DNA of 35,857 bases from a virus. The position numbers and the translations under genes are program-made. Below the pieces are notes generated by a model, which was given only the letters and a program-made list of their open reading frames with translations, had not been told where the DNA came from and did not search any database. The DNA lies in the UHGV virus genome UHGV-0063910; one strand, written 5' to 3'. Numbering within the stretch: position 1 is the stretch's first letter; every line of letters begins with the position of its first letter. Below are positions 6,699 through 25,037 of this stretch, piece after piece.

Positions 6699-7489
6699 TT
6701 ACGCCAGTTGTACAGACACGAACTCATCAGGGTCAGCCAGCAGCATCAGCGGTGCTGACTGAATCATGGTGAACTCACGCGCCGGGTCGCCGGTGGTCAC
6801 CCAGTTTTTCGGGTAACGGGCAGAGGCGTTAATGCCTTCGCGCTGTGCGTCCGCATCCTGAATGCAACCATAGGTGCGCAGACCGCGTGCCTGAGTGTTC
6901 CCCAGCACCATCGTGTTGTCCGGCAGGAAGTTCTTTTTGACGCCGTTTTCCACGTACTGTCCGGAATACACGACGATGGCCACATCGCCATACATTCCCT
7001 TATAAGACACCGCTTTGCCCAGGTCTTTTACCGCTGTCTCCAGCTCGGAATGAGAGCCGCGACGGGTATCCAGCTTCTCCTTGACGGCTTTGAAGGAACG
7101 GAACAGCGCCCAGCCTTTCGGATCAAACACGATGATATTCACCACACCGCTGGCGTTCAGCGCGTAGGCTTCGATATCGTCGGTCGGGTCATACGTGGAC
7201 TTGTCACGCTTGCTCCACTCCGTGCCGCCGGACTGCGTGATGTTATTCGCCTCACTGCGGCCCATATCCACCTCAACCGGATCGAAGGCTTCACCGGTCA
7301 TGGTATATTTGCCCTTAAGCACGGCAGAAACTGCCTGCATCTCTTCGACCTGGGCAATCGCCAGATTTTCATCCAGCATATTCTGCCGAATAATACGGCG
7401 ACGACGGTAAGCCGGGTCAGCCAGGTTCTGCGGATCTTCATCCGGCAGGCGACGCAGGGTCATCTGCGGATTCACCTCATGCTTGGGTT
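6699..7489 (-). pseudogene. E: Major capsid protein E, 3' portion (lambda E codons ~82-341), cut off from its 5' end by the island
   Basis: Translation PKHEVNPQMTLRRLPDEDPQNLADPAYRRRR...DPDEFVSVQLA matches the lambda gpE C-terminal ~260 aa. The reading frame is preceded by a TAA where the island begins. The N-terminal 82 codons are at 18606..18849. Confidence 0.9.
7480..7489. repeat. Left copy of 10-bp direct repeat TGCTTGGGTT flanking the island (putative attL core)
   Basis: Identical 10-mer at 18606..18615. Outer flanks on each side are the two halves of the E reading frame (cctca on the left, tgacata on the right). Confidence 0.8.
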
Positions 7490-7608
7490 ACATGAGTCAA
7501 ATATGAAAGGATGTGAATGATTTTTAGTGATAATATGCTTCAGAATTACTTCCAAAACGAACCGTTGCAATACATCATGCAATACACAGGATATGTAAGG
7601 AGTTATTA

Positions 7609-7794
7609 ATGACTAATTCAGTTGATGTTCAAACCCGTAGAGAAGAATTTGAGCAAGGATATCGAGATGGCTTTCGTTCGGTTCAGGGCAATGTTTTACC
7701 CCCAAAAGCTCCAAGAATTGTACTTGAAACGGGTTCAAAACCTTACGATCAAGGCCATGCTTACGGGGTCAGAGATGCTGGAGGCAAGCGGTAG
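7609..7794 (+). CDS. Small hypothetical protein (61 aa), first gene of the island cargo region
   Basis: ATG at 7609 with AAGGAG 8 nt upstream; AT-rich region; directly upstream of the Abi-like gene. Confidence 0.45.
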   Translation: MTNSVDVQTRREEFEQGYRDGFRSVQGNVLPPKAPRIVLETGSKPYDQGHAYGVRDAGGKR

Positions 7795-7838
7795 CTATCA
7801 CTGGTATAGTCCATAGAAAAAGTGTAAGGGGTCCTAAA

Positions 7839-8600
7839 ATGGATAATTTTCTCAATGAGTTTTCGTCGGATCAGGAACGAGCTAGACATTTAGAGAACTT
7901 ATTAATTAAGGTTGCTCGAGGAGGACCTCGAGATAATAGTGAAAATTATATTTCTCTTAGATCGTACTTTATACAAAACTCTGTATTAAAACTGTTGCTT
8001 CCTGCATTCGTAAGAGAAAACAGAAGCCTAAAAAAATTTTGGGGATTCATACAGCAGAAGTTCCCAACATATAAAGAGCGCGAGTACTTCATCTCAACTG
8101 AATTCACACCGTTATTCGATTATTTCGAAGAGAATCATGCTACGCCTTCGGATGTTCACATAACTGACGGATTAAGAAGCTATGATGAGTGTGGCGTGAA
8201 TGAAGCTTGGGCAAAAGCTCTAGACAGAAGAAACAACGATCCTGAAGGGGCTATTACAGCATCTAGAACATTGCTTGAGACGGTTTGTAAACACATTCTT
8301 GATGATTTAAGTATTACTTATGATAGAAATCTAGACATGAGTGAACTTTATAAACTAACATCCAAAGCACTTAATTTGGCTCCAGATCAGCACGGAGAAC
8401 AGATTTTTAAGCAGATACTTAAAGGTTGCTCATCTGTGGTAAATGGCCTTGGCAATTTACGTAATAAATATGGCGATGCTCATGGCATAGGGAAAAAACC
8501 AATAAAACCTGCTGATCGACATGCTCTTTTAGCTGTTAATCTTGCAGGAAGCATGTCAGTTTTCCTCATTCAAACATGGCAAAACTTGTCAAACAAATAA
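7839..8600 (+). CDS. Abortive-infection-like protein with C-terminal HEPN-type motif (candidate anti-phage cargo)
   Basis: 253-aa ORF with AAGGGG RBS; motif LRNKYGDAHG fits the Rx4-6H HEPN signature. AT-rich composition by eye, at the island edge. Confidence 0.5.
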   Translation: MDNFLNEFSSDQERARHLENLLIKVARGGPRDNSENYISLRSYFIQNSVLKLLLPAFVRENRSLKKFWGFIQQKFPTYKEREYFISTEFTPLFDYFEENHATPSDVHITDGLRSYDECGVNEAWAKALDRRNNDPEGAITASRTLLETVCKHILDDLSITYDRNLDMSELYKLTSKALNLAPDQHGEQIFKQILKGCSSVVNGLGNLRNKYGDAHGIGKKPIKPADRHALLAVNLAGSMSVFLIQTWQNLSNK

Positions 8601-9308
8601 TACCTAATTTTTAACCTCAACTGATTAAATTTCGGTCAAACATCCGTTAGTGAAATACAAGTTGCTATGTAAATACACACCTGCAACTTGTATTACCAAC
8701 CAAGTTTAGCTCCCGATATTACTCATTTCCATTATTTTTCCTTGGCTAGCGCTTCGTCGAACATTTTTACGTGTTATCTTCAAGGTAGATGCTCGCAGAA
8801 ATGATAGTACCACCGATTCGGCGTTGACCATAAGCCAGCAGAACAAGATCCCCTTGGCCGGTTGTATTCGTTACACCACCAAATGCATAGAATGCCTTGT
8901 TATCAGTATCTTGCTTACTCGGCTACCCACAAGATTGTGGGGATAGCATTTGAGCAACGTAGCCTATCGTCACAGAAGCCCCTACTACAAACATCATATT
9001 ACTGGACGCTATACGCGCTCCTGACATTCAGATAGACACAGCAACGCAAATCATTTGCAGCAGACCAGAGCTTTTACTTTCCACAATAACTGGCACAAAT
9101 ACGAATTTCCCGACCCTCAGTAGAGAGCACAAGCGCATCTTTTCCAATATTCTGTTTCCTATGAAAAATACAGAATGTCAGCTCGCGAAATTTACTAGTA
9201 TTCAGATACTTTTCTAATCGAACCTCTCAGTTTAATCGTCATCATTACCTTATAGCTCTGCATTTCGAGTTCCTACAGTAGAGTAAGTGTTCAGTAACCC
9301 AAGTTCAG

Positions 9309-9517
9309 GAGAAAGGAAACGATCATGCCATTTTCAGTCCCAAATAATGCTTTCCATTTCCTTTCTTTTCAGGTGGTGTTTTAAATAAAAACATAAAGTT
9401 ACGGCGAAGAAGAACGGAAACGCCTTAAACCGGAAAATTTCCATAAATAGAGAAAAACTGCGCGCCTTCCGCCCCGTAGTCTGCCGGATTGCCGGAAAGG
9501 ACCCGCCAGCCAGAGCG
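9309..9517. other. Island cos-like site, homologous to the prophage cos
   Basis: About 210 bp alignable with 24828..25037. The ggttacggcgaagaagaacggaaacgccttaaaccggaaaatt block is near-identical. The cosN-like segment (about 9463..9474) differs at several positions and the R1-like hairpin has diverged. Confidence 0.75.
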
Positions 9518-9530
9518 GGCCCTAATTTCA

Positions 9531-9875
9531 TCAACCAATCAACTTATTGCGCCCTTTCAGGGCATTACGCCTGGCGCGTTCAATCTTGAGGCATAACGCC
9601 GCATCAGGTTTTTCCGGTGTGGGTACGAGGCAATAGTTTGATGCTCGCGGGATATTGTTAATCCACTCAACAACCTCGCTTAAATACCAAGCCTTACGCC
9701 CTTCCGTAACCTGCACACGCTCAGGGAACTCTCCACGAGCCTCAAGGTTTAGCAGTGTACGGCGACTCAGGGTTGTAAGTTCCATCACCTGATTCATATC
9801 GACAAGACGCTCGCTTAAGCGCATTTTGTCATCGATATCTAATAGCTCTCGTAGCTGACTATCTCTTTCAATCAT
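9531..9875 (-). CDS. AlpA/MerR-type HTH protein next to the cos-like site (regulator or packaging-specificity factor)
   Basis: 114 aa; segment ELTTLSRRTLLNLEARGEFPERVQV...WYLSEVVEWINN fits the AlpA-family HTH pattern. GAGG RBS; last gene of the E-like/D-like operon. Confidence 0.5.
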   Translation of the reverse strand: MIERDSQLRELLDIDDKMRLSERLVDMNQVMELTTLSRRTLLNLEARGEFPERVQVTEGRKAWYLSEVVEWINNIPRASNYCLVPTPEKPDAALCLKIERARRNALKGRNKLIG

Positions 9876-9884
9876 TCTCGTACC

Positions 9885-10226
9885 TCACACACGTGCCAGC
9901 GGCTGAACAGAAATACCTGAGCCAACAAACGCAGCAACTTTTGCTGATAGTTGTGTTACAGACTCAGGCCAGTTCAGAGCATCAACATTTAAGACGCCGG
10001 TTTTATAAACCTGAGCCTGCGTTTTTGTCGCTGTATCGATTTGTACAGCGGAAACATAAACAGCTTTGCCTGCGCTCGTTCCATCCCATACCACCAGTGC
10101 ACCAGTTGCATCTTCTTGCATCAGTGGCGTAAATGCAGGAATTACCCCTTTATTAGCTGAAAATATCCCCAACGTAGTAACCAGTGCTTCAGTGCCAGCC
10201 ATGAGTTCAGTGTAATGAGTAGCCAT
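9885..10226 (-). CDS. Head decoration protein, lambda gpD-like (island-encoded)
   Basis: 113 aa; aligns with lambda D over TPLM...LVVWDGT..GKAV...YKTG....LNWPE.....AFVGSGIS. AAGGGGGAG RBS; immediately downstream of the E-like gene. Confidence 0.75.
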   Translation of the reverse strand: MATHYTELMAGTEALVTTLGIFSANKGVIPAFTPLMQEDATGALVVWDGTSAGKAVYVSAVQIDTATKTQAQVYKTGVLNVDALNWPESVTQLSAKVAAFVGSGISVQPLARV

Positions 10227-10235
10227 TGCTCCCCC

Positions 10236-11276
10236 TTAACCAATGCGAACGGTAACAAAACGATTGATGCGGGCCGGTATTGGCTGTGGTGCAGAGTGCG
10301 TTTGTACGTACTCAATAGCCGGATCTCCAGGCACAATGTAGTTTTTCGGTGCGAGTTCGGCTTTAGTCAGCCCCATTCGGATTAGCTCCGGATCCTGAAT
10401 GCCACCGTATGCAACGATGCCCTGAAGTGATGTATTGCCAAGAACCATCAAATCAGGATCAAGGAAATATTTTTCTGTTCCGTCCTCGTCGGTATAACGT
10501 CCGCTATACACAACAATAGCCACATCGCCTACGTAACCCTTAAAACTGACGGAATCCCCAAGATTTTTCAGGGCCGTTTCAAGAACGGAATTAGATCCCC
10601 GTCGAGTATCAAGGCAATCTTTTACTGCTTTAAAGGCGCGGTATTTTTTCCATACGTTGCGTCCCATTACGATGATATTTGTAGTCCCTTCGCTGATTTC
10701 TGCGTACTCTTCGATGTCATCATTTGGATCAAATGTTGATAAATCTCTACCGCTCCACTCCGTGCCGCCGGACTGCGTGATAATATTTTGTGGTTTTATA
10801 TTCCAGTCCAGTTCATAACGTTCAATGCCATCGCCCTCAATGATATTTTTCCCCGTTGTGATTGCCTGAACAGCAAGCCATTCAATACGTGCGCGAATGG
10901 CCTGCGCTTGTCTTACCATCGCTCGCTTTATTTTGAAATTGCGTGATGAATATGCATTGAATTGTTCCGGTGATACGCCTGGTTGACGAACGGCTATTTT
11001 ATTTGGGTCTATACTACTTTTTGGCTTCATGTAGCCAGGGCGAATTACTTTTGATTCGTAGCCTTCATCGCGTGATACTTTACTACCAACCATAGGGGAA
11101 CAAAATGCAGCCATCGGGATGTCTGGATCGTCAATAATATCAAGCGCAATATCCCGCGTCTCAAATGTAACGACTCGCTTAAAAAACAGGTTTATAAATA
11201 AAGAGTTAATCTGCCATTGAATATCTTCGGCATTAACAGTCTGTATTAACTCCGCTGGCGAATATAAACCACTCAT
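10236..11276 (-). CDS. Major capsid protein, lambda gpE-like, full length (island-encoded second copy)
   Basis: 346 aa. Conserved blocks ITQSGGTEWS, DTRRGS, GDVAIVVYSG, YG.IQD shared with lambda E and the split prophage E. Divergent from the prophage copy (roughly half of positions differ by eye). Confidence 0.85.
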   Translation of the reverse strand: MSGLYSPAELIQTVNAEDIQWQINSLFINLFFKRVVTFETRDIALDIIDDPDIPMAAFCSPMVGSKVSRDEGYESKVIRPGYMKPKSSIDPNKIAVRQPGVSPEQFNAYSSRNFKIKRAMVRQAQAIRARIEWLAVQAITTGKNIIEGDGIERYELDWNIKPQNIITQSGGTEWSGRDLSTFDPNDDIEEYAEISEGTTNIIVMGRNVWKKYRAFKAVKDCLDTRRGSNSVLETALKNLGDSVSFKGYVGDVAIVVYSGRYTDEDGTEKYFLDPDLMVLGNTSLQGIVAYGGIQDPELIRMGLTKAELAPKNYIVPGDPAIEYVQTHSAPQPIPARINRFVTVRIG

Positions 11277-11461
11277 ATAACCTCTTAATACTTAGTAAAA
11301 GTGTCGTATTAATTTTATCATCTGCCTTGATCGGCATCTTTATGCATTGCTATGCAATATTGTGCAAAGTTTCAATCTTCGTTTATTTATCCGGCGTTAC
11401 GTGTCATTCTGTACAGCGTTACAAGTTCAAAGACATAAATTATTCTCTTTGGTGATGAAAG

Positions 11462-11487
11462 GGTCGGAATATTCCGGCCTTTTTTTT
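11462..11487 (+). terminator. Intrinsic terminator on the plus strand (hairpin + T8)
   Basis: ggtcggaatattccggcc palindrome followed by tttttttt. No plus-strand ORF upstream, so it may end an unannotated small or antisense RNA. Confidence 0.5.
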
Positions 11488-11510
11488 GCGTGGTGTGACG
11501 GACTCAACTG

Positions 11511-11532
11511 ATAAAAGCCGGATTTCTCCGGC
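11511..11532 (-). terminator. Intrinsic terminator for the island replication operon (minus strand)
   Basis: On the minus strand gccggagaaatccggc followed by ttttat, immediately after the ssb-like stop. Confidence 0.5.
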
Positions 11533-11540
11533 CTGTGCGT

Positions 11541-11947
11541 TCAGAATGGAATATTGTCACCGTAGAGATCATCCCCTCCCGCTGGTGGTGTGTTGCCCTG
11601 TGTGCCTGTGGTTTTACGTCTGTTCCCGCCAGGTCGCACCGTTCGCGCACTGATTACGCTGTCTGCGATAACCTGCCAGCGCTGCCGCGTTTCACCGTTC
11701 TGTCCAGTCCACTGGCTCACCTGCATGTTACCCGCCACGCTCAGGAGTTCGCCTTTGTGATGCTTTGCCAGCGTGTCGGCTTGTCTGCCAAACGCCAGGA
11801 CAGATAACCACATCGTCGCCTGACCGTCATCCGACTGCAGGGCAGTGATACCGCCATACGCGCCAGCGTCATGGGGATGCCCTTGCTGGTCTGTTTTGTC
11901 TGCGGGTCGTCCACCAACCTCCCGTAAACTGATATTTGCGCCGTCAT
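11541..11947 (-). pseudogene. ssb: ssb-like gene split over two reading frames (frameshift near 11838..11850)
   Basis: The 11947 frame gives an SSB-like N-terminus (ISVYGRLVDDPQTKQ...). A different frame gives the OB-fold C-half (WLSVLAFG...KGELLSV...WTGQNGETR) and an acidic tail ending DNIPF. Confidence 0.55.
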
Positions 11948-12201
11948 GCTGCCTGCTCTCCGGACTTAATATTGATGGTTGTCACTTCCTCCGCTTCAGC
12001 AATCTCCCGTTCGGTCAGAGTGGCAAAGTTTGCAGCCGCCGTTGTCATGAATGCGCTAATCAGTTCGGGATGTGCTTTCGCGTATCCTTCACCGGCGTTG
12101 CGATCTATTGCCTTAATCGCCACCCTTAGCCAGTGTTCAGCCATATCAAGGGCGCGGTAATGTGGCTTTATATGTTTGTTCAGTTTTCCTGATGTGTGCA
12201 T
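11944..12201 (-). CDS. Hypothetical protein (85 aa), between the ori and the ssb-like gene
   Basis: ORF whose stop overlaps the ssb-like start; weak RBS. Confidence 0.4.
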   Translation of the reverse strand: MHTSGKLNKHIKPHYRALDMAEHWLRVAIKAIDRNAGEGYAKAHPELISAFMTTAAANFATLTEREIAEAEEVTTINIKSGEQAA

Positions 12202-12246
12202 TTTTATTTTTACCCCCTCGTTTAAAAAGTTTTGAAATGTGGTGCA

Positions 12247-12475
12247 CCTCCTCTACCTCTCTACCTAATCATCTTTCAGGTCAGTAATGGCGCGGCTTTC
12301 AGATGGGTAGAGGGCTTTCGGGGCCCTCTACCCATCCTCTACCCGCCCCTCACAAATGACCTTAATCATGGTGGAGGAGGTAGAGGGCTTTTATTTGCCT
12401 TCTACCTGACCCTCTACCTGCTTATCATATTGAATAATATATATTTATTTTCTTTAGGTAGAGGAGGTAGAGGGC
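12247..12475. repeat. Iteron array (about 9 copies of GGTAGAGG/CCTCTACC, both orientations) flanking an AT-rich stretch: putative island origin of replication
   Basis: Iterons at about 12251-12265, 12306-12313, 12325-12344, 12379-12386, 12399-12420, 12457-12473; AT-rich core 12421-12456; immediately 3' of the primase-helicase gene. Confidence 0.75.
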
Positions 12476-12487
12476 TTTTGTCTAAAA

Positions 12488-14239
12488 TTATAAAAACGCG
12501 TCGCAATCCTCTGTTGTTGTCACATTGGTTTGCGTAAGTCCTTTAACCCTGCGCGTTATATATTCACATCCGTAAACTTTCGCCGCTGGCTTCATGGCCT
12601 TGCTGAAATCAGCCACGTTTAGCGGCTTGCTTCTGCCTGCGTATGCCATAAACGCCAGATAGACGCGGTAAAGGCTGTTTCTGGTCGTGTACTTCACGGA
12701 ATCGCCACCGCCACCCATCATCAGGCCGCGCGCTTCCTCCAGAAAATTCAGAAACTGGCAAAACTCAATAACCGGATCCGTCTGTTGCTTTATCGCCAGT
12801 GCTTCTTCACCGTCGCGCTGTTCAATCAACAAATGTCGCGCCTTTTCTGGATCAGCAAAGTTTGCCAGCAATCTGCGGATAATCACGGGGATTTCAGCCG
12901 CGACCTTCTCCGGTAAATCCTTGTCCTTTTCTGCCTCGCTAACGATATTGTCGAAGCGGAAAATTACGCGACGACGTGACACACCTCCGGCCCGTTCGGT
13001 GAATATCATCGGGTTATTGTTGGTAGCCAGCACCACCGCCCTGATTACCTCCGTAAAACGCTTTTCATATTTCGGGTTTATTTCCACGGGGTCGCCGCCC
13101 GTGATTTTCTTGATGCCCGTGCCTTCGCCTGTATATTTCGGCTGGTCAGCCAGGACGATAAGACGTCTCCCGACAACCTGAGCACGCCCACCAGCATCAT
13201 CAAGCGAAGTCATTTCAGCGCTTACCGTGTTCTGTTTCCCTGCCAGAAGGCTGGCTATGTGCGTGAATGTACTCTTTCCGCTCCCGCCGTCTCCGGTGGC
13301 CTCAATAAACATCTGCCAGTCGTACCGGTTCGCCATAATCATGTACAGCGCGGCACATATACGCATCATCTTGCGCGGGTCTTTTCCGGCTGCGTGATCA
13401 AGCCATTTATGAAAGTTTGGCGCGTTGTCGCGGATGTTCTCCCCTGGTGCTGGTGGCGTGTACTCAATGCCGTTGTGCGTGGTGATCCAGTTCTCCGGCG
13501 AGTGCGGGGAAAATTCCCCCGTTTTCAGGTCAAGCACACCATTGGCGAACGGTAGCAAATCACCGGACGGCTCCCCCATGGGGTCGGCAATAACTTTTAA
13601 CGCCTCCACGGCGTTATTAATTGCACGCTTGCTGAATGTGGCCCTGTGCTCTGAATAGATCGCCACCATTTCGCGGCTCAGCTCCATTGTGCTGACCGGA
13701 CACCATACCCCGCCGCGCCATACGTGGACGATTTCACTTTCTGCATGAACACACACACCATCAAAGCGATCGGCAAGTAGTTGTGCACGTTCACTGTCTG
13801 CCATCTGTGAAAGTTGCGCCTTTTGCTTCGTCGGAAGATTAAGCACCAGACTTTCCCCACGCTCGCATTCCTCTTTGAGTCGCGGCAACTGGTCGGATAA
13901 ATCCACGGGGCTGGTGTCAGTAATCCCCGCGTATTCGTGTACGGTCTTCACTCCAGCCACAGCCAATAACGTAACAATCTGCGTCATGCTGTGCTCTGTG
14001 ATATGTCCTGCGCGGTAAACACGCACACACTGACGATCTTCATCAATGATCCGGTAATCGGTGATATTTTTCAGTTGCTCATCAGCCAGCACGACAGGCG
14101 GCACATCGTCGGCGGCAATATGTTTACCCGCCCATTCCTGCCACTCTTTCGCATGGCTCCACGCATCACTACCTGCAAAGATGATTACCTCTGTCAGTCT
14201 GTCGCGTGGCTGTTTTTTTAAGTTCGGTGCCAGTTTCAT
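12488..14239 (-). CDS. Primase-helicase (D5/P4-alpha-like, SF3 helicase with Walker A)
   Basis: 583 aa; Walker A motif GDGGSGKST in the C-terminal half; location between regulatory genes and ori typical of satellite replication modules. Confidence 0.8.
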   Translation of the reverse strand: MKLAPNLKKQPRDRLTEVIIFAGSDAWSHAKEWQEWAGKHIAADDVPPVVLADEQLKNITDYRIIDEDRQCVRVYRAGHITEHSMTQIVTLLAVAGVKTVHEYAGITDTSPVDLSDQLPRLKEECERGESLVLNLPTKQKAQLSQMADSERAQLLADRFDGVCVHAESEIVHVWRGGVWCPVSTMELSREMVAIYSEHRATFSKRAINNAVEALKVIADPMGEPSGDLLPFANGVLDLKTGEFSPHSPENWITTHNGIEYTPPAPGENIRDNAPNFHKWLDHAAGKDPRKMMRICAALYMIMANRYDWQMFIEATGDGGSGKSTFTHIASLLAGKQNTVSAEMTSLDDAGGRAQVVGRRLIVLADQPKYTGEGTGIKKITGGDPVEINPKYEKRFTEVIRAVVLATNNNPMIFTERAGGVSRRRVIFRFDNIVSEAEKDKDLPEKVAAEIPVIIRRLLANFADPEKARHLLIEQRDGEEALAIKQQTDPVIEFCQFLNFLEEARGLMMGGGGDSVKYTTRNSLYRVYLAFMAYAGRSKPLNVADFSKAMKPAAKVYGCEYITRRVKGLTQTNVTTTEDCDAFL

Positions 14240-14535
14240 TTTTTGCCCCTGAATGCGTTAATCATGCTTTTCATTTTCTGGATGTTTCCCCGCGCTTTTT
14301 CCCTGCTGATGGGGTTACTGCGGGGTGCGGCATATACCAGGGAAAAATCACGCCGGAACTGATAAACAGGCATCACGCAGTCATAGCTATACCCCTCACG
14401 GCGGTAAGTGATGCGCCGTTCTGCCACGCCTTTAATCGTTACCGTGCCGCCGTATTTATCGCGGTAAATATCGCCGTTCATAAATTCAGGCCGAGCGGGG
14501 CCGCTGGCAATAAAGCCAGAATTTTTCATTTCCAT
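14236..14535 (-). CDS. Hypothetical protein (99 aa), translationally coupled to primase
   Basis: Stop overlaps the primase ATG (ATGA). Confidence 0.5.
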   Translation of the reverse strand: MEMKNSGFIASGPARPEFMNGDIYRDKYGGTVTIKGVAERRITYRREGYSYDCVMPVYQFRRDFSLVYAAPRSNPISREKARGNIQKMKSMINAFRGKK

Positions 14536-14552
14536 ATTATTTATTCCTCGAC

Positions 14553-14774
14553 TTAACTCGACTTATTTGATAGCAGGGCACTATTTATTGCGTCATTGAG
14601 TTTTTCTGCTGCTTCATCAATAAGTGACAACAGGCCATAAGCAATATTTGCATCTTCATTGTCATTTATGCAATCAAGCCACATATTTAATATTGCTTTT
14701 GCTGAATTATTTAAAGTTAATGAACTTTCTGCACATGCTAACAATTTAAAAAAGACTTCCCGTTCTGTATTCAT
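14553..14774 (-). CDS. Hypothetical small protein (73 aa)
   Basis: ORF in the tightly packed minus-strand operon; AT-rich codons. Confidence 0.4.
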   Translation of the reverse strand: MNTEREVFFKLLACAESSLTLNNSAKAILNMWLDCINDNEDANIAYGLLSLIDEAAEKLNDAINSALLSNKSS

Positions 14775-14966
14775 TTAATCCCCCACCAGCTTACTTTCTT
14801 CCTCAATCAAAAAACTAGCGACACTTCCCGAAAGACGCGCCAGTAGGCTCGCCAGTGCGGATATATCAGCATCTGTAATTTTGTTCGGGTATACCTCAAG
14901 AAGGCGGCAAATAATTTCTGTCTGGTGCGCACGTTCAGCGGCTTCGTGTAATGTAATTTCCTGCAT
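14775..14966 (-). CDS. Hypothetical small protein (63 aa)
   Basis: Abuts neighbouring ORFs in the same operon. Confidence 0.4.
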   Translation of the reverse strand: MQEITLHEAAERAHQTEIICRLLEVYPNKITDADISALASLLARLSGSVASFLIEEESKLVGD

Positions 14967-15151
14967 TAATGCACCTCTTTTAATTCATACACTGCTGAAA
15001 TAATGACTTGTGATAAGCCATATTCTGATGATTCGCTTCTCACCGCAGCAATAGCCGTCTGAACATTAACAGCCTTCACGTTCTGAGCGATACCAATTGT
15101 GTGGCCTAGTGGGTTAACCGCACGAGCAAATACACGGAAGGTTTTAAGCAC
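14966..15151 (-). CDS. Hypothetical small protein (61 aa)
   Basis: Abuts neighbouring ORFs in the same operon. Confidence 0.4.
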   Translation of the reverse strand: MLKTFRVFARAVNPLGHTIGIAQNVKAVNVQTAIAAVRSESSEYGLSQVIISAVYELKEVH

Positions 15152-15508
15152 GGCATACCTCCTGACGAATACGGGCGGCGAATATCATCACGCAGCCAGT
15201 TGGGGATTGTTGGCGGGCTTCCTGTTCGCTGGTGGCCTCGATGTGTATTACGCGTGGTTGTGCGGTGCTCAGGGCGATAAAACGCCAGATGAAATTGTTT
15301 TCGCATTTCTGAATAAACAGCGTGTTTTCTTCACGCCCTTTCCAGAAAGCCGCAGTATAGCCCATCTCCTTAACCATCTTGCGGGCATCAACCAGCGTGT
15401 CAGCGGCAACATGTACCGTAGTTGCTCCATCTGCCATGCGGTCGTGGTGTAGTGCCAGAAAGGTGTATATAAATTTAGGGTGAGTTTGGGTATGCTGTGT
15501 TCCAGCCA
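15144..15508 (-). CDS. Hypothetical protein (121 aa), first gene of the island early operon
   Basis: ATG at 15506-15508 with GAGG RBS. The track ORF upstream of this ATG (to 16058) is antisense to the regulator gene and Ser/Arg-rich, so treated as spurious. Confidence 0.5.
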
Positions 15509-15595
15509 TAATCGTTACCTCGTTTAACGGTTTGGTTAGAAGCCCGGTTAGTGTTCGCGCACTGCCGGGTTTCGTCGTTTTTATGAATCGATCAT

Positions 15596-15699
15596 TGTGA
15601 GATACATAGCGACCATAATGTGAGATATACATTATATTGTGGTGATATACATTGCAAGTGTTTTTATATCTCACTTTTGTGTATAGTGATATACACATA
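15596..15699. promoter_or_regulatory. Divergent control region with 5 copies of a GTGA(G/T)ATA(T)ACA(T) operator-like repeat
   Basis: Copies at about 15596-15608, 15619-15632, 15640-15651, 15665-15674 (inverted), 15687-15699, between the minus-strand operon start and the plus-strand regulator. Confidence 0.55.
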
Positions 15700-15717
15700 A
15701 CAAATTGGTGATTAACT

Positions 15718-16020
15718 ATGTCTGTATACAAAAATGCAAAATCGCAAATGACAACGATCAGGGTTCCCCACGATGTTATGGAGGGCATGGAATCCGTAAA
15801 ACTGGACGGCGAAAGCAACGCCGGATTCATAGTAACCGCCATGCGCGGTGAGATCGCCCGCCGCCAGGCAGAAGGAAGCGGAGAAAATCCCCTCGTGTCT
15901 TCACTGGATGCCTTAGCTAAGGTCGAACAAATCGGCATCAAGGCAGCGGAGGAAATCGGGCAACTCGTAGCCGTCGCTCGTGAAGAACTCCAGCGGCGTA
16001 AAGCCAAAGAATCTGAATAA
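15718..16020 (+). CDS. Putative ribbon-helix-helix-like DNA-binding regulator (candidate island repressor)
   Basis: 100 aa; N-terminus QMTTIRVPHDVMEGMESVKLDGESNAGFIVTAMRGEIARRQ fits a strand-helix-helix layout; immediately downstream of the operator repeats. Confidence 0.4.
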   Translation: MSVYKNAKSQMTTIRVPHDVMEGMESVKLDGESNAGFIVTAMRGEIARRQAEGSGENPLVSSLDALAKVEQIGIKAAEEIGQLVAVAREELQRRKAKESE

Positions 16021-16370
16021 TTAGTATCAGCGCCGTGATGTGAGTAACTACGGCGCATTGCTATGTAAATACTGGCAATAAACAGAAAAGGTAGTTCTAC
16101 TCCGAATAATTTTATCTGACACTACTCCTGAACTAACATGCGCTTATCTTACAGGATATAAATATAAATCCATAAAATCACGATTAAATAAAGTCGCTCC
16201 AAACATAAACCACACCCAACGCTTAACAAGATAGCAACAAACAGGTAAATAACTTGCAGAAATATTTATCGCAAGGATTATCATTATTAATGACAAATCA
16301 CTTTACCAAGTCATTCCCCTCTCTTATCATAAAGAGAAAGTAATAAATAAGTTAAGGGAGTTAGAATGCT

Positions 16371-16907
16371 ATGAATCTAAAAAAAATAGCCACAAACACA
16401 AAAAACAAGATAACAGAAACATTTAATAAACTTATATTGGAGGCATCTAAAACCCCCACGCAAGATGAAATTAAAATACTTGAGAGAAGGAGTAAGAAGT
16501 TTAATTACTCCTTTTTCTCATACGCAGTCACAGGAGCTATAATAGTTTTTTGCTCTCAACCATTAATTAAATACGCAAACCCAATACTTATTTTATTGAG
16601 TGGTCTGTTACTGTCTATCATCATTATCATTCTCAGAATGATTTATATTTCACAAGCGAATGCATCATGGACAACCAAAAAACGCTCACATGTACTAGTT
16701 CATTTTCTTTCTGCATGTTTCATAGCATCAACATTGACGTTGCTATATCAGGCTTACGATAATAACATCACACACAAATTGTACTGTAAAAATATACAAC
16801 AACTTATTGAAAAAAGGATAGAAATAGAAAAAAACATCAGCATATTCAGTGGGATGCAATGCACCCCGGTATATGATTACTCTTTATTTGGATTTAATCT
16901 CTTATAA
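16371..16907 (+). CDS. Small membrane protein (about 3 TM helices), AT-rich cargo
   Basis: 178 aa; hydrophobic stretches FFSYAVTGAIIVFCSQPLI, ILILLSGLLLSIIIIILRMIYI, VLVHFLSACFIASTLTLLY; Lys/Asn/Ile-rich; preceded by GGGAG. Confidence 0.5.
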   Translation: MNLKKIATNTKNKITETFNKLILEASKTPTQDEIKILERRSKKFNYSFFSYAVTGAIIVFCSQPLIKYANPILILLSGLLLSIIIIILRMIYISQANASWTTKKRSHVLVHFLSACFIASTLTLLYQAYDNNITHKLYCKNIQQLIEKRIEIEKNISIFSGMQCTPVYDYSLFGFNLL

Positions 16908-16927
16908 AGAATGTTATTACTGATTTG

Positions 16928-16961
16928 AGTACAAATTCTCAAATCAGTAATTCATAATATT
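16928..16961. terminator. Bidirectional terminator hairpin (13-bp stem) between the membrane-protein gene and alpA
   Basis: ttactgatttgag ... ctcaaatcagtaa inverted repeat with an 8-nt loop and T-rich flanks on both sides. Confidence 0.55.
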
Positions 16962-16976
16962 TTATTCTGAGATAAT

Positions 16977-17213
16977 TTAAACTACCCACTCACCTCGAAT
17001 CCATGCCTGCACTTCTGAAAGACGATATGCAACAGCAGTGGAACCAATCTTGATCCGCTTAGGAAATTTTCCTTCCTTCTCCAGCTTCCAGCGTGTGCTG
17101 TTCGCAAGAGTGGTTAGCTCCCGACATTCTTTCTCACGGATCATTCGGTCAATGTTAGGAATGTACTCCAGACCCTTTTTATCAACAATTGCCATTTTTT
17201 TCATGTTAACCAA
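16977..17213 (-). CDS. alpA: AlpA-family HTH regulator / excisionase-like protein
   Basis: 78 aa; ELTTLANSTRWKLEKEGKFPKRIKIGSTAVAYRLSEVQAWI matches the AlpA pattern; directly downstream of int, overlapping it by 8 nt. Confidence 0.7.
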   Translation of the reverse strand: MVNMKKMAIVDKKGLEYIPNIDRMIREKECRELTTLANSTRWKLEKEGKFPKRIKIGSTAVAYRLSEVQAWIRGEWVV

Positions 17214-18441
17214 CCTTTTGTTTGAGGATTGTCACTTTTGAATCAGCACCTGCGATGCTATTGAGATATGTAGTCCAGAGTTCCAGAGCATCCAGTTTTT
17301 TAGCCATAAACTTACTCCGGTTGTAAACACCTGCCACGCCAGGTAGCGCATGGCCTAACAGTTGTTCTACTACATAAAATTCAACACCGAGATCACTTAG
17401 ATGAGTAGATAGCGTTCTTCTAAGGTCGTGTAGTGACCATTGTTTTTCATGGCCCAAACGTTTACCGATTTTCCCCCCAATCTTGCTTACGCTTTCTCTA
17501 ATTCGCAGACTTCCCAGCACATAACCAGTATGTTTTGTCTCTTCGTGAACATCCGTTACCCACTGTCGTAGAATTTCAGGTACTGGTCTGACGATTTCAA
17601 CACCAGTTTTTGAGTGATCTTTTGGTACAGTCCAAACCCAACTTTCGAGATCCCATTCGCTCCATTCTGATAATCGGGCTTCACTCATTCGACATCCAAA
17701 TACTGTACAAAGCACAAACATTTTTCGCGTGTATTCAGACATTAGTTTTAAATCAGGCTCGACAAAAATTGCCTTCCAGAGCTGGCCGAGTTCGGCTTCA
17801 TCCAGAACCCGATCCCGCTTACCTGCAATCTGCCCCACATCACTCATGCGCAAATCCTTTAAAGCATCACACGTCGCGTACTGGCGTACCCGACAAAAAC
17901 GAAGAGCTAATTTAGTGTCAGAAAAAACATACGCCGCCATAACTGGTGCATTACGTTTAATTCGGTCAAAACAGTCCAGCCATTCATATAGGTGAGTGTC
18001 ATTTACGGGCAAATGACCGATATAGGGAAAGATATGCTTTCGAAATCTGCCAAGCGTTACAGCATGAGTTTTACGACGCACCTTACAGTAATTTTCATAC
18101 CAGTAATTTAGTGCATCCTCCACTGTGACCGGCTTTAAGCGTTCTTCAGCCTGAATCTTAATCTGGATACGCGGATCACGTTTGTCAGCCAACCAACCAC
18201 GGCACTCGTCGCGCTTTTCCCTTGCCTGTTTGAGTGACATATCAGGATATTTACCCAACGTTAGCCAGACCGGAGCAGCCCGGCCACCTGCTAACCTGTA
18301 GAAGAAAACAAAGCTTACAGCCCCTTTAGTACTCACACGAATAGAAAGCCCCTTTCCATCAGCAATGGTGATCTGCTTTTCTCTGGGTTTCCCCAGATAT
18401 CCTTTAAGCGCTTTGTCGCTCAGTTTGTTCTCGCCAGCCAT
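17206..18441 (-). CDS. int: Tyrosine integrase (P4-type)
   Basis: C-terminal catalytic region with HDLRRT...LGH...Y residues; sits next to the right repeat. Start placed at ATG 18439-18441 (MAGENKLSDK...); the track ORF extends to 18492. Confidence 0.85.
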   Translation of the reverse strand: MAGENKLSDKALKGYLGKPREKQITIADGKGLSIRVSTKGAVSFVFFYRLAGGRAAPVWLTLGKYPDMSLKQAREKRDECRGWLADKRDPRIQIKIQAEERLKPVTVEDALNYWYENYCKVRRKTHAVTLGRFRKHIFPYIGHLPVNDTHLYEWLDCFDRIKRNAPVMAAYVFSDTKLALRFCRVRQYATCDALKDLRMSDVGQIAGKRDRVLDEAELGQLWKAIFVEPDLKLMSEYTRKMFVLCTVFGCRMSEARLSEWSEWDLESWVWTVPKDHSKTGVEIVRPVPEILRQWVTDVHEETKHTGYVLGSLRIRESVSKIGGKIGKRLGHEKQWSLHDLRRTLSTHLSDLGVEFYVVEQLLGHALPGVAGVYNRSKFMAKKLDALELWTTYLNSIAGADSKVTILKQKVG

Positions 18442-18605
18442 TTTTAGCCCCAAAAAGCAATACAAGCTGCAATACAGAGATGATTGCAACACACAGATAA
18501 CGAGGAAAATTCAGTGAAAGCACCAGATAAACTTATTCTTTATTATCAAAAGATTAAGTGTAAAAACCAGCAACTACACGAAAGCCTCAGAAAGCCATGC
18601 TAAGT

Positions 18606-18615
18606 GCTTGGGTTT
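18606..18615. repeat. Right copy of 10-bp direct repeat TGCTTGGGTT (putative attR core)
   Basis: Identical to 7480..7489; lies inside the codons KPKH of the E 5' fragment. Confidence 0.8.
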
Positions 18616-20578: not shown

Positions 20579-24259
<3,681 letters not shown>

Positions 24260-24285
<26 letters not shown>

Positions 24286-24805
24286 TCAGCAACCCCAGTA
24301 TCAGTTCATCCAGCGCGGCTGCTTTGTTCATGGCTTTGATGATATCCCGTTTCAGGAAATCAACATGTCGGTTTTCCAGTTCCGGAAAACGCCGCTGCAC
24401 CGACAGGGGGATCCCGTCGAGAATACTGGCAATTTCACCTGCGATCCGCGACAACACGAAAGTACAGAATGCGGTTTCCACCACTTCAGCGGAGTCTCTG
24501 GCATTCTTCAGTTCCTGTGCGTCGGCCTGCGCACGCGTAAGTCGATGGCGTTCGTACTCAATAGTCCCTGGCTGGAGATCTGCCTCGCTGGCCTGCCGCA
24601 GTTCTTCAACCTCCCGGCGCAGCTTTTCGTTCTCAATTTCAGCATCCCTTTCGGCATACCATTTTATGACGGCGGCAGAGTCATAAAGCACCTCATTACC
24701 CTTCCCACCACCTCGCAGAACGGGCATTCCCTGCTCCTGCCAGTTCTGAATGGTACGGATACTCGCACCGAAAATGTCAGCCAGCTGCTTTTTGTTGACT
24801 TCCAT
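24260..24805 (-). CDS. Nu1: Terminase small subunit Nu1
   Basis: 181-aa ORF MEVNKKQLADIFGASIRTIQNWQEQGMPVLRGGGKGNEVLYDSAAVIKWYAERD... essentially the lambda Nu1 sequence. Confidence 0.95.
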
Positions 24806-24827: not shown

Positions 24828-25037
24828 AGAGAAAGGAAACGACAGAGGCTAAAAAGCCCGTTTTCAGCACCTGTCGTTTCCTTTCTTTTCAGGGGGTGTT
24901 TTAAATAAAAACATTAGGTTACGGCGAAGAAGAACGGAAACGCCTTAAACCGGAAAATTTTCATAAATAGCGAAAACCCGCGAGGTCGCCGCCCCGTAAC
25001 GGTCTGGATCACCGGAAAGGACCCGCCAACGACTTTC
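24828..25037. other. Prophage cos site (cosB R elements, cosN with 12-nt cohesive end AGGTCGCCGCCC at 24983..24994, cosQ side)
   Basis: Reverse complement contains GGGCGGCGACCTCGCGGGTTTTCGCTATTTATGAAAATTTTCCGGTTTAAGGCGTTTCCGTTCTTCTTCGCCGTAAC, matching the lambda left end/cos as recalled. Confidence 0.9.

Follow-up and report, generated by a model that had tools for sequence, protein, structure and literature searches.

A helper-embedded PICI in gene E of a lambda-like prophage carries a second lambda-type cos site with a natural right-half cosN allele

Introduction

Which terminase would cut a satellite's cos site that resembles the helper's at the terminase-binding cosB and differs from it at cosN? 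The question arises from a 35,857-nucleotide stretch of viral DNA (UHGV virus genome UHGV-0063910; the whole stretch is referred to here as the window), in which a lambda-like prophage is interrupted by an island with a cos site of its own. The first-pass annotation of the window took the cosN changes of the island to suggest an altered nicking specificity, perhaps supplied by an HTH protein encoded directly beside the site, as E. coli cos-type PICIs can redirect the helper terminase with a protein of their own.

A related arrangement has been described at the family level. The HE-PICI 11capE sits in gene E of prophage 50icd in E. coli NRG857c, and 201 instances have been counted at the E site (PMC10111431). 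The island and its helper have a cos-like segment of 258 bp in common, at 90% identity, and Tommasini, Mageeney & Williams (2023) presumed that 11capE is packaged by the helper cos machinery (PMC10111431). The cos subsites, the cosN alleles and the cos classes of the family were not dissected in that paper (PMC10111431), and our search for follow-up literature on HE-PICI cos sites found none. Below, the island, its helper and the two cos sites are described, the cosN alleles are traced through related phages and satellites, and the possible readings of the island site are weighed.

The island and its gene content

An 11,125-bp island (7490-18614, minus strand) splits the lambda-type capsid gene E of the prophage. 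Its borders and length are set by an exact 10-bp direct repeat, the att core TGCTTGGGTT, found at 7480-7489 on the tail-gene side and at 18605-18614 on the head-gene side. The N-terminal piece of gene E (18849-18605, the first ~80 codons) holds Pfam Phage_cap_E positions 1-78, and the C-terminal piece (7489-6699) holds positions 94-328. Cutting the island out in silico restores the gpE frame, with GYVKPKH joined to EVNPQM.

The island comprises int (17206-18492), an AlpA gene (16977-17213), a D5-type primase gene (12488-14239), an SSB gene, complete capsid genes of its own (E-like, 10236-11276; D-like, 9885-10226), an AlpA-like gene, cos and an Abi cargo; int, AlpA, the primase gene and the capsid genes lie on the minus strand. 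This is the gene order of a PICI, in which int-AlpA, a regulatory zone, primase-replication genes and a late zone with a capsid gene follow one another. The island genes are co-oriented with the helper head genes on the minus strand, as they are in annotated relatives, and the insertion lies inside a lambda-type gene E with a short identity block flanking it, which is the mark of capE-site HE-PICIs. This layout recurs in many complete E. coli genomes, where three features are annotated as "major capsid protein", and their same-site islands are 93-94% identical in nucleotide sequence to the window island. The island is a helper-embedded PICI of the 11capE family, residing in gene E of a lambda-like prophage. 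It is an element other than 11capE, since the best complete-genome match covers only 79% of the island at 94% identity.

Several features of the gene content vary within the family. The SSB gene (11541-11947) is broken by a frameshift, and its homologue in relative L313 is intact (149 aa). The segment from cos to att is variable cargo (7839-8600 in the window, 10692-11380 in L314, 8867-9625 in L315); in the window it holds an Abi_C-domain gene on the opposite strand, and in relatives it holds DUF2971 genes or other ORFs. L314 also has captured tail-gene fragments between cos and the AlpA-like gene.

The helper prophage and its terminase

The late genes of the prophage all lie on the minus strand, in the order Nu1 (24805-24260), A (24285-22360), W, B, C and D (19237-18905), with FI, FII, Z, U, V, G, T and H farther down. 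The helper cos (24828-25028, minus strand; R1 at 24828-24843, R3 at 24930-24945) is identical to that of lambda DE3 at 186 of 201 positions, and its cohesive end (24983-24994, minus strand), AGGTCGCCGCCC, is identical to lambda's. Helper Nu1 (TerS; 24260-24805, minus strand) matches lambda Nu1 at 179 of 181 residues. The differences are at residues 132 and 170 only, and the DNA-binding domain is identical. Helper gpA (TerL; 22360-24285, minus strand) is identical at 634-640 of 641 residues to the gpA of phages that have the cosN allele of the island.

A 20-mer in the tape measure gene H (2846-2865), GATTACCGGAAAGGACCAGC, matches the cosQ block at 18 of 20 positions. No cosN-like sequence was found beside it, so it was rejected as a real site and is probably a coincidence.

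Anatomy of the island cos

The island contains a second cos site in the helper's orientation, as the first-pass annotation had recognised. Positions 9308-9508 (minus strand) align to 24828-25028 at a constant offset of 15,520, with 153 of 201 positions identical and zero gaps. The similarity had been drawn out over ~210 bp, to 9517 and 25037; it is real and ends at 9508 and 25028. A repeat search recovers 9357-9508 against 24877-25028 (87% identity, 152 nt), and a pattern anchored on the cosN flanks matches nowhere in the window but at these two cos sites (expectation from shuffles, 0). By lambda convention (cosQ-cosN-cosB), the island site and all of the subsites that follow are read on the minus strand.

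The terminase-binding part of the site is well kept. R3 (9410-9425, lambda bp 65-50) is identical to the helper at all 16 positions, and its spacing to cosN is unchanged; the core contacted by TerS is bp 55-63 of R3 (PMC9026076). The I1 (IHF-site) region (9369-9409) is identical at 34 of 37 positions over 9373-9409. The R2 box (9353-9368), TCCATTTCCTTTCTTT in the island and GTCGTTTCCTTTCTTT in the helper, has three changes at its outer edge and an intact core, TTTCCTTTC. The outer four bases have gone from GTCG to TCCA and do not belong to the TTTCC(T/G)TTC core with which TerS makes contact, and the core segment 9357-9372 is identical at 16/16. Over the R2-I1-R3 block as a whole, 66 of 69 positions agree, which confirms the near identity reported earlier for this block.

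R1 had been described as rewritten, and this does not hold. The R1 box (9308-9323), GGAGAAAGGAAACGAT, keeps 14 of the 16 helper bases even though the flanks on both of its sides are unrelated. What has been replaced is the R1-R2 spacer (9324-9352), which retains the helper's length, together with the four outer bases of R2. This 33-nt segment (9324-9356) is identical to the helper at 7/33 positions and is 100% identical in islands L313, L314 and L276.

cosN occupies 9461-9476. Its 12-nt cohesive-end sequence lies at 9463-9474 and that of the helper at 24983-24994, exactly where they had been placed; it reads CGCCTTCCGCCC on the plus strand and 5'-GGGCGGAAGGCG in lambda orientation, and is named type 2 here. 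Five bases differ from the helper (bp 7, 8, 9, 10 and 12), all in the cosB-proximal half. Thus, bp 12-7 (9463-9468) match at 1/6 and bp 6-1 (9469-9474) at 6/6, and the CG dinucleotides flanking the nicks are conserved (2/2 each). The R3-cosN spacer is identical to the helper at 31 of 35 positions and I2 at 7 of 14. The cosQ-containing block (9491-9508) is identical at 17 of 18 and is 0.99 conserved among islands; it includes AGGACCC at 9498-9504, which we take to be the lambda cosQ GGGTCCT.

With cosQ, an intact left half of cosN and R3-I1-R2(-R1) at fixed spacing, the island site is a lambda-type cos. An Rfam scan of the whole window gave no family at its gathering score, and a promoter and terminator scan around cos gave nothing exceeding the shuffled expectation.

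Natural cosN alleles and terminase compatibility

The lambda-like phages YDC107_1 and PhiR46_1, which have Nu1 and A genes of their own, carry exactly the type-2 sequence. In an exhaustive scan of IMG/VR, type 2 was present at 56 sites, at least 34 of which adjoin Nu1 and gpA and only 5 of which lie in islands. Phages are thus the main carriers of type 2. Most of them are represented by prophage or metagenome contigs, and PhiR46_1 is the only type-2 entry that was deposited as a phage and for which a propagation host is named; a literature search on PhiR46_1, which bears on the viability of a type-2 phage, found no paper. A further allele, type 3 (CGCCTGACGCCC), was found at 57 IMG/VR sites, mostly in 11capE-family islands but also in a few phage contexts. 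Type 2 differs from the lambda cohesive end at 5 positions and type 3 at these 5 plus bp 6; types 2 and 3 are 2 nt apart.

Cohesive-end differences at bp 7-12 are common in lambda-like phages, and the natural cosN variation of lambda, N15 and gifsy-1 is likewise confined to these positions (Feiss et al. 2015, PMC4669245). In N15 and gifsy-1, 2-3 cosN positions are described as differing, a number that types 2 and 3 exceed (PMC4669245). Rare cohesive-end variants were also seen (L236, L093, L105), with CGTCTGCCGCCC in an island and AGGTCGACGCCC and CGGTCGCCGCCC in phage contexts.

Three gpA sequences, identical over 641 aa, each occur beside both lambda-type and type-2 cosN, and the same is true of four identical Nu1 sequences. 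Neither gpA nor Nu1 covaries with the cosN allele, and no gpA residue tracks it. Published genetics agree with this picture. TerL-lambda is without cosN specificity, and it nicks right-half cosN variants efficiently because TerS anchors it at cosB (PMC4669245). The change G2C is deleterious, whereas the symmetric C11G has no phenotype (PMC4669245). The positioning of TerL by TerS at cosB renders bottom-strand nicking insensitive to sequence (PMC4669245, PMC9026076). The phage contexts of type 2, the identical gpA and Nu1 beside both alleles and these genetics all contradict the suggestion of an altered nicking specificity. By comparison with the phages, the island cosN is an ordinary natural right-half allele, one used by the same gpA elsewhere.

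cos architectures in the family

An allele-unbiased sample of 80 related islands proved polymorphic at cosN, with ~37 lambda-type, 36 type 3, 4 type 2 and 1 other. Three cos architectures were found. In the first and commonest, the island has its own 180-aa Nu1-like TerS and an unrelated cosB. In the second, a lambda-type cosB lies beside a Nu1 gene (~72% identity), which is a pseudogene in L315. The third, that of the window island, is a lambda-type cosB alone.

The intact 180-aa TerS (L317 9610-10152, L318 9610-10152 and L129/L233; RefSeq WP_001588504.1) has 34% identity to full-length Nu1. It adjoins a cosB that lacks R3/R2/R1 similarity, and in the IMG/VR sample this was seen in ~37 of 68. 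The type element is described as lacking terS, yet the 180-aa TerS configuration is the commonest in the sample.

Association of cosB and cosN

The cosB class and the cosN allele are associated in these islands. Among IMG/VR island cos sites with a lambda-type R3, a lambda-type cosN was found on 0 contigs and type 2 or 3 on 27, whereas phages with the same cosB mostly have the lambda-type cosN. In composites of a helper and a lambda-cosB island (composites L313-L320), the island and the resident helper differ at cosN in 9/9, and the only two composites with equal cosN involve islands with their own cosB and TerS. The simplest reading of this association is linkage. As cosN lies ~35 bp from R3, linkage and common descent from one captured haplotype suffice without selection.

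The same counts could also reflect an adaptive difference at cosN. The island cohesive end, with 5/12 mismatches, would not anneal with the helper's, and a chromosome begun at the cos of one element and ended at that of the other, on an unexcised composite or on mixed concatemers, could not cyclise. This proposal is compatible with cutting by the helper terminase, and a 2-bp mismatch is known to cost ~4-fold in viable yield (PMC4669245). We nevertheless regard it as unlikely. Beyond the short distance between cosN and R3, the islands share specific substitutions right beside cosN, the 27 contigs are non-independent samples, and all three alleles occur in islands that have a cosB of their own; moreover, a clear gain in fitness for the satellite has yet to be formulated.

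A broader form of the proposal, in our view equally doubtful, is that lambda-like phages and their satellites may fall into "cohesive-end compatibility groups" set by the right half of cosN, with PICIs that reuse the helper cosB always outside the group of a lambda-type helper. If so, a shared terminase would cut both elements, but chromosomes with mixed ends could not cyclise.

A chimeric junction at cosN

The island cos is a clean chimera. To the left, 16 of 16 informative sites match L313, and islands L313, L314 and L276 are 100% identical to the window island over 8601-9433. On the right, starting with cosN itself, all 84 of 84 informative sites belong to the L233/L129 lineage and match L233. 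A single lineage switch falls within 9459-9468, at the N1 nick.

Packaging that begins at one cos and terminates at a different one produces a chimeric cos (PMC4669245). The island junction has the form of the footprint expected when the left end of one element joins the right end of another (PMC4669245), and would then be evidence that the site has been used in the past. Homologous recombination inside GCGCGCCT, which is short and shared, could instead have produced the junction. If cohesive-end compatibility groups exist, the junction would be an end-joining footprint within one such group.

A proposed route for packaging the island

The island is probably packaged by the helper's own terminase through its copied cosB, at about four copies per lambda head. 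We infer binding, cleavage and multimer packaging from what the sequences display directly, namely the anatomy of the site, its conservation, the distribution of its alleles and the absence of terminase or HTH covariation. Because cosB is intact, its spacing is exact and the DNA-binding domain of helper Nu1 is lambda's, the helper terminase should bind and cut the island cos without an adaptor; the earlier expectation that helper Nu1 should bind the island cosB thus seems well founded. An island-encoded specificity factor would be unneeded, since the island has neither terS nor rpp and its natural cosN allele is used by the same gpA.

In the proposed sequence of events, the satellite would excise and replicate, and the helper terminase would then recognise satellite DNA directly. 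Nu1 and IHF would bind the copied R3-I1-R2(-R1) cosB, and the anchored gpA would nick the island cosN 12 bp apart. The DNA would be translocated toward lower coordinates, that is, toward the Abi/att side, and the downstream island cos would be cut using the conserved cosQ and the left half of cosN. With a unit of 11,125 bp, it would take about four copies (44.5 kb) to fill a head of lambda size.

Conservation within the family supports a working site. Over 29 unique lambda-cosB island cos sequences, conservation is 0.94-0.99 for the R boxes, cosN and cosQ (R1 box, 0.94) and 0.60-0.80 for the flank, the spacer and I2. The diverged islands L242 and L281 keep the R boxes and have changed spacers. 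However, the three substitutions at the R2 edge and the replaced R1-R2 spacer could weaken cosB.

The site might, alternatively, be a decaying, non-functional relic of a captured Nu1-cos module, with the changes in cosN and the spacer due to drift. The neighbourhood of cos does decay, since relatives L002/L315 keep a Nu1 pseudogene with an internal stop beside the same cos; the window island has lost the Nu1 gene entirely and has damaged genes, such as the frameshifted SSB gene. In addition, virions were not detected for the 11capE/50icd pair by Tommasini et al. (PMC10111431). Drift would not be expected to keep functional subsites selectively while spacers and flanks diverge, nor to preserve spacing to the base. 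Furthermore, bp 1-6 of cosN and cosQ are invariant, the cosN variants seen are all confined to the mutation-tolerant half, and cos lies beside the AlpA-like gene in nearly all 80 sampled islands. A relic is, accordingly, quite unlikely, and packaging by the helper terminase remains the preferred reading.

The AlpA-like gene beside cosQ

The HTH protein to which an altered nicking specificity had been tentatively ascribed is a 114-aa product of the gene at 9531-9875 (minus strand). It belongs to the AlpA/excisionase family by its matches to Pfam PF05930 (Phage_AlpA), PDB 8c3t (AlpA) and phrog_2790. The last of these, annotated as "excisionase and transcriptional regulator", is common to this protein and to the int-adjacent AlpA (16977-17213). 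The island has two AlpA/excisionase paralogues, one by int and one by cos. In relatives, the 9531-9875 protein takes a 127-aa form that differs at the N-terminus. One identical 127-aa homologue adjoins each of the three cosN alleles, and the gene is found with either cosB class of the family; the AlpA-like protein covaries with neither the cosN allele nor the cosB class.

Searches for a link to Rpp or TerS were negative. The 114-aa protein gave no Rpp match among PDB sequences even at E <= 10, and blastp against the RppA-like protein of L007 gave no similarity. A tblastn search of the window with that protein (144 aa, R21 and T22) detected no homologue, the best hit having E = 0.83. There are no ORFs of at least 60 aa in 8601-9333, tblastn over the 8600-9309 gap recovered no remnant of Nu1, TerS or Rpp, and no TerS or Rpp family member was found among the scanned island ORFs. 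The island has no Nu1 or nu180 homologue either, and the sole tblastn match is the helper's own Nu1. Therefore, the window island is not a TerS-encoding satellite.

The location of the gene is also unlike that of rpp. In L007 (344-1102), an EcCICFT073-like locus, two inverted cos sites ~700 bp apart flank a 144-aa RppA-type gene with R21 and T22, a cos1/cos2 and rppA layout that agrees with the published arrangement. In EcCICFT073-like loci, rpp lies on the Nu1 side of cos, whereas the 9531-9875 gene lies across cos from it, on the cosQ side. Rpp-dependent PICIs encode, on the Nu1 side of cos, an Rpp of 139-154 aa that mimics the DNA-binding domain of TerS, and their cosB is unrelated to the helper's; the window island has neither feature.

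The 9531-9875 protein is an AlpA/excisionase paralogue and would not be a packaging factor. Although its gene directly adjoins cos, Rpp-type redirection exists in E. coli PICIs (PMC6739421) and the protein has a weak HTH-level resemblance to Nu1 (27% over 48 aa, E = 0.16), a role in nicking is very improbable and already largely refuted computationally, given its family, its position, its identical homologue beside three alleles, the identical gpA and Nu1 that serve both alleles in phages without such an island, and the fact that Rpp retargets cosB recognition rather than cosN nicking (PMC9026076).

Relation to known satellites

The window island is closest to 11capE. Both are ~11 kb long, occupy the same gene E site with a 10-bp core and are co-oriented with the helper late genes; both have int-AlpA, a primase, their own E and D homologues and a ~200-260-bp cos-like segment shared with the helper. 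That a satellite island with a helper-type cos is present here, as the first-pass annotation stated, is borne out by the anatomy of both the island and its cos. An HE-PICI with a helper-like cos is an already published arrangement at the family level, and the site is ordinary for its family, since the altered-nicking claim, the sole new one, fails.

Other E. coli PICIs offer a partial parallel (Fillol-Salom 2018/2019; Murialdo & Feiss 2022). EcCICFT073, which is Rpp-type, likewise has an island cos beside E-like and D-like genes and uses a lambda-like terminase. It is packaged as multimers in full-size heads, the terminase skipping intermediate cos sites (PMC6092414). Rpp-type PICIs keep cosN and cosQ and replace cosB (PMC6739421, PMC9026076); they have a lambda-like cosQ and cosN, no lambda-like cosB, and an Rpp on the Nu1 side that retargets TerS. 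In the window island, by contrast, cosB is retained, the right half of cosN varies and rpp is absent. The analogy that had been drawn with these elements is therefore inverted.

In using a copy of the helper cos without terS, and an unmodified helper terminase, the island resembles SaPIbov5-type SaPIs and P4 (PMC6092414), although here this is predicted from sequence. SaPIbov5 and P4 are unrelated elements with unrelated helpers, and capsid-size redirection is a feature of theirs.

Implications

The association of cosB class with cosN allele and the chimera exact to cosN are minor leads. Three smaller points may be of interest to workers on lambda packaging and on PICIs. First, one satellite family would have at least three packaging solutions, namely its own TerS with its own cosB, a copied cosB with a decaying Nu1, and a copied cosB alone. 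Second, rare right-half cosN alleles are enriched in satellites, in which cosN is never of the lambda type when cosB is. Third, cos sites in the 11capE family recombine exactly at cosN.
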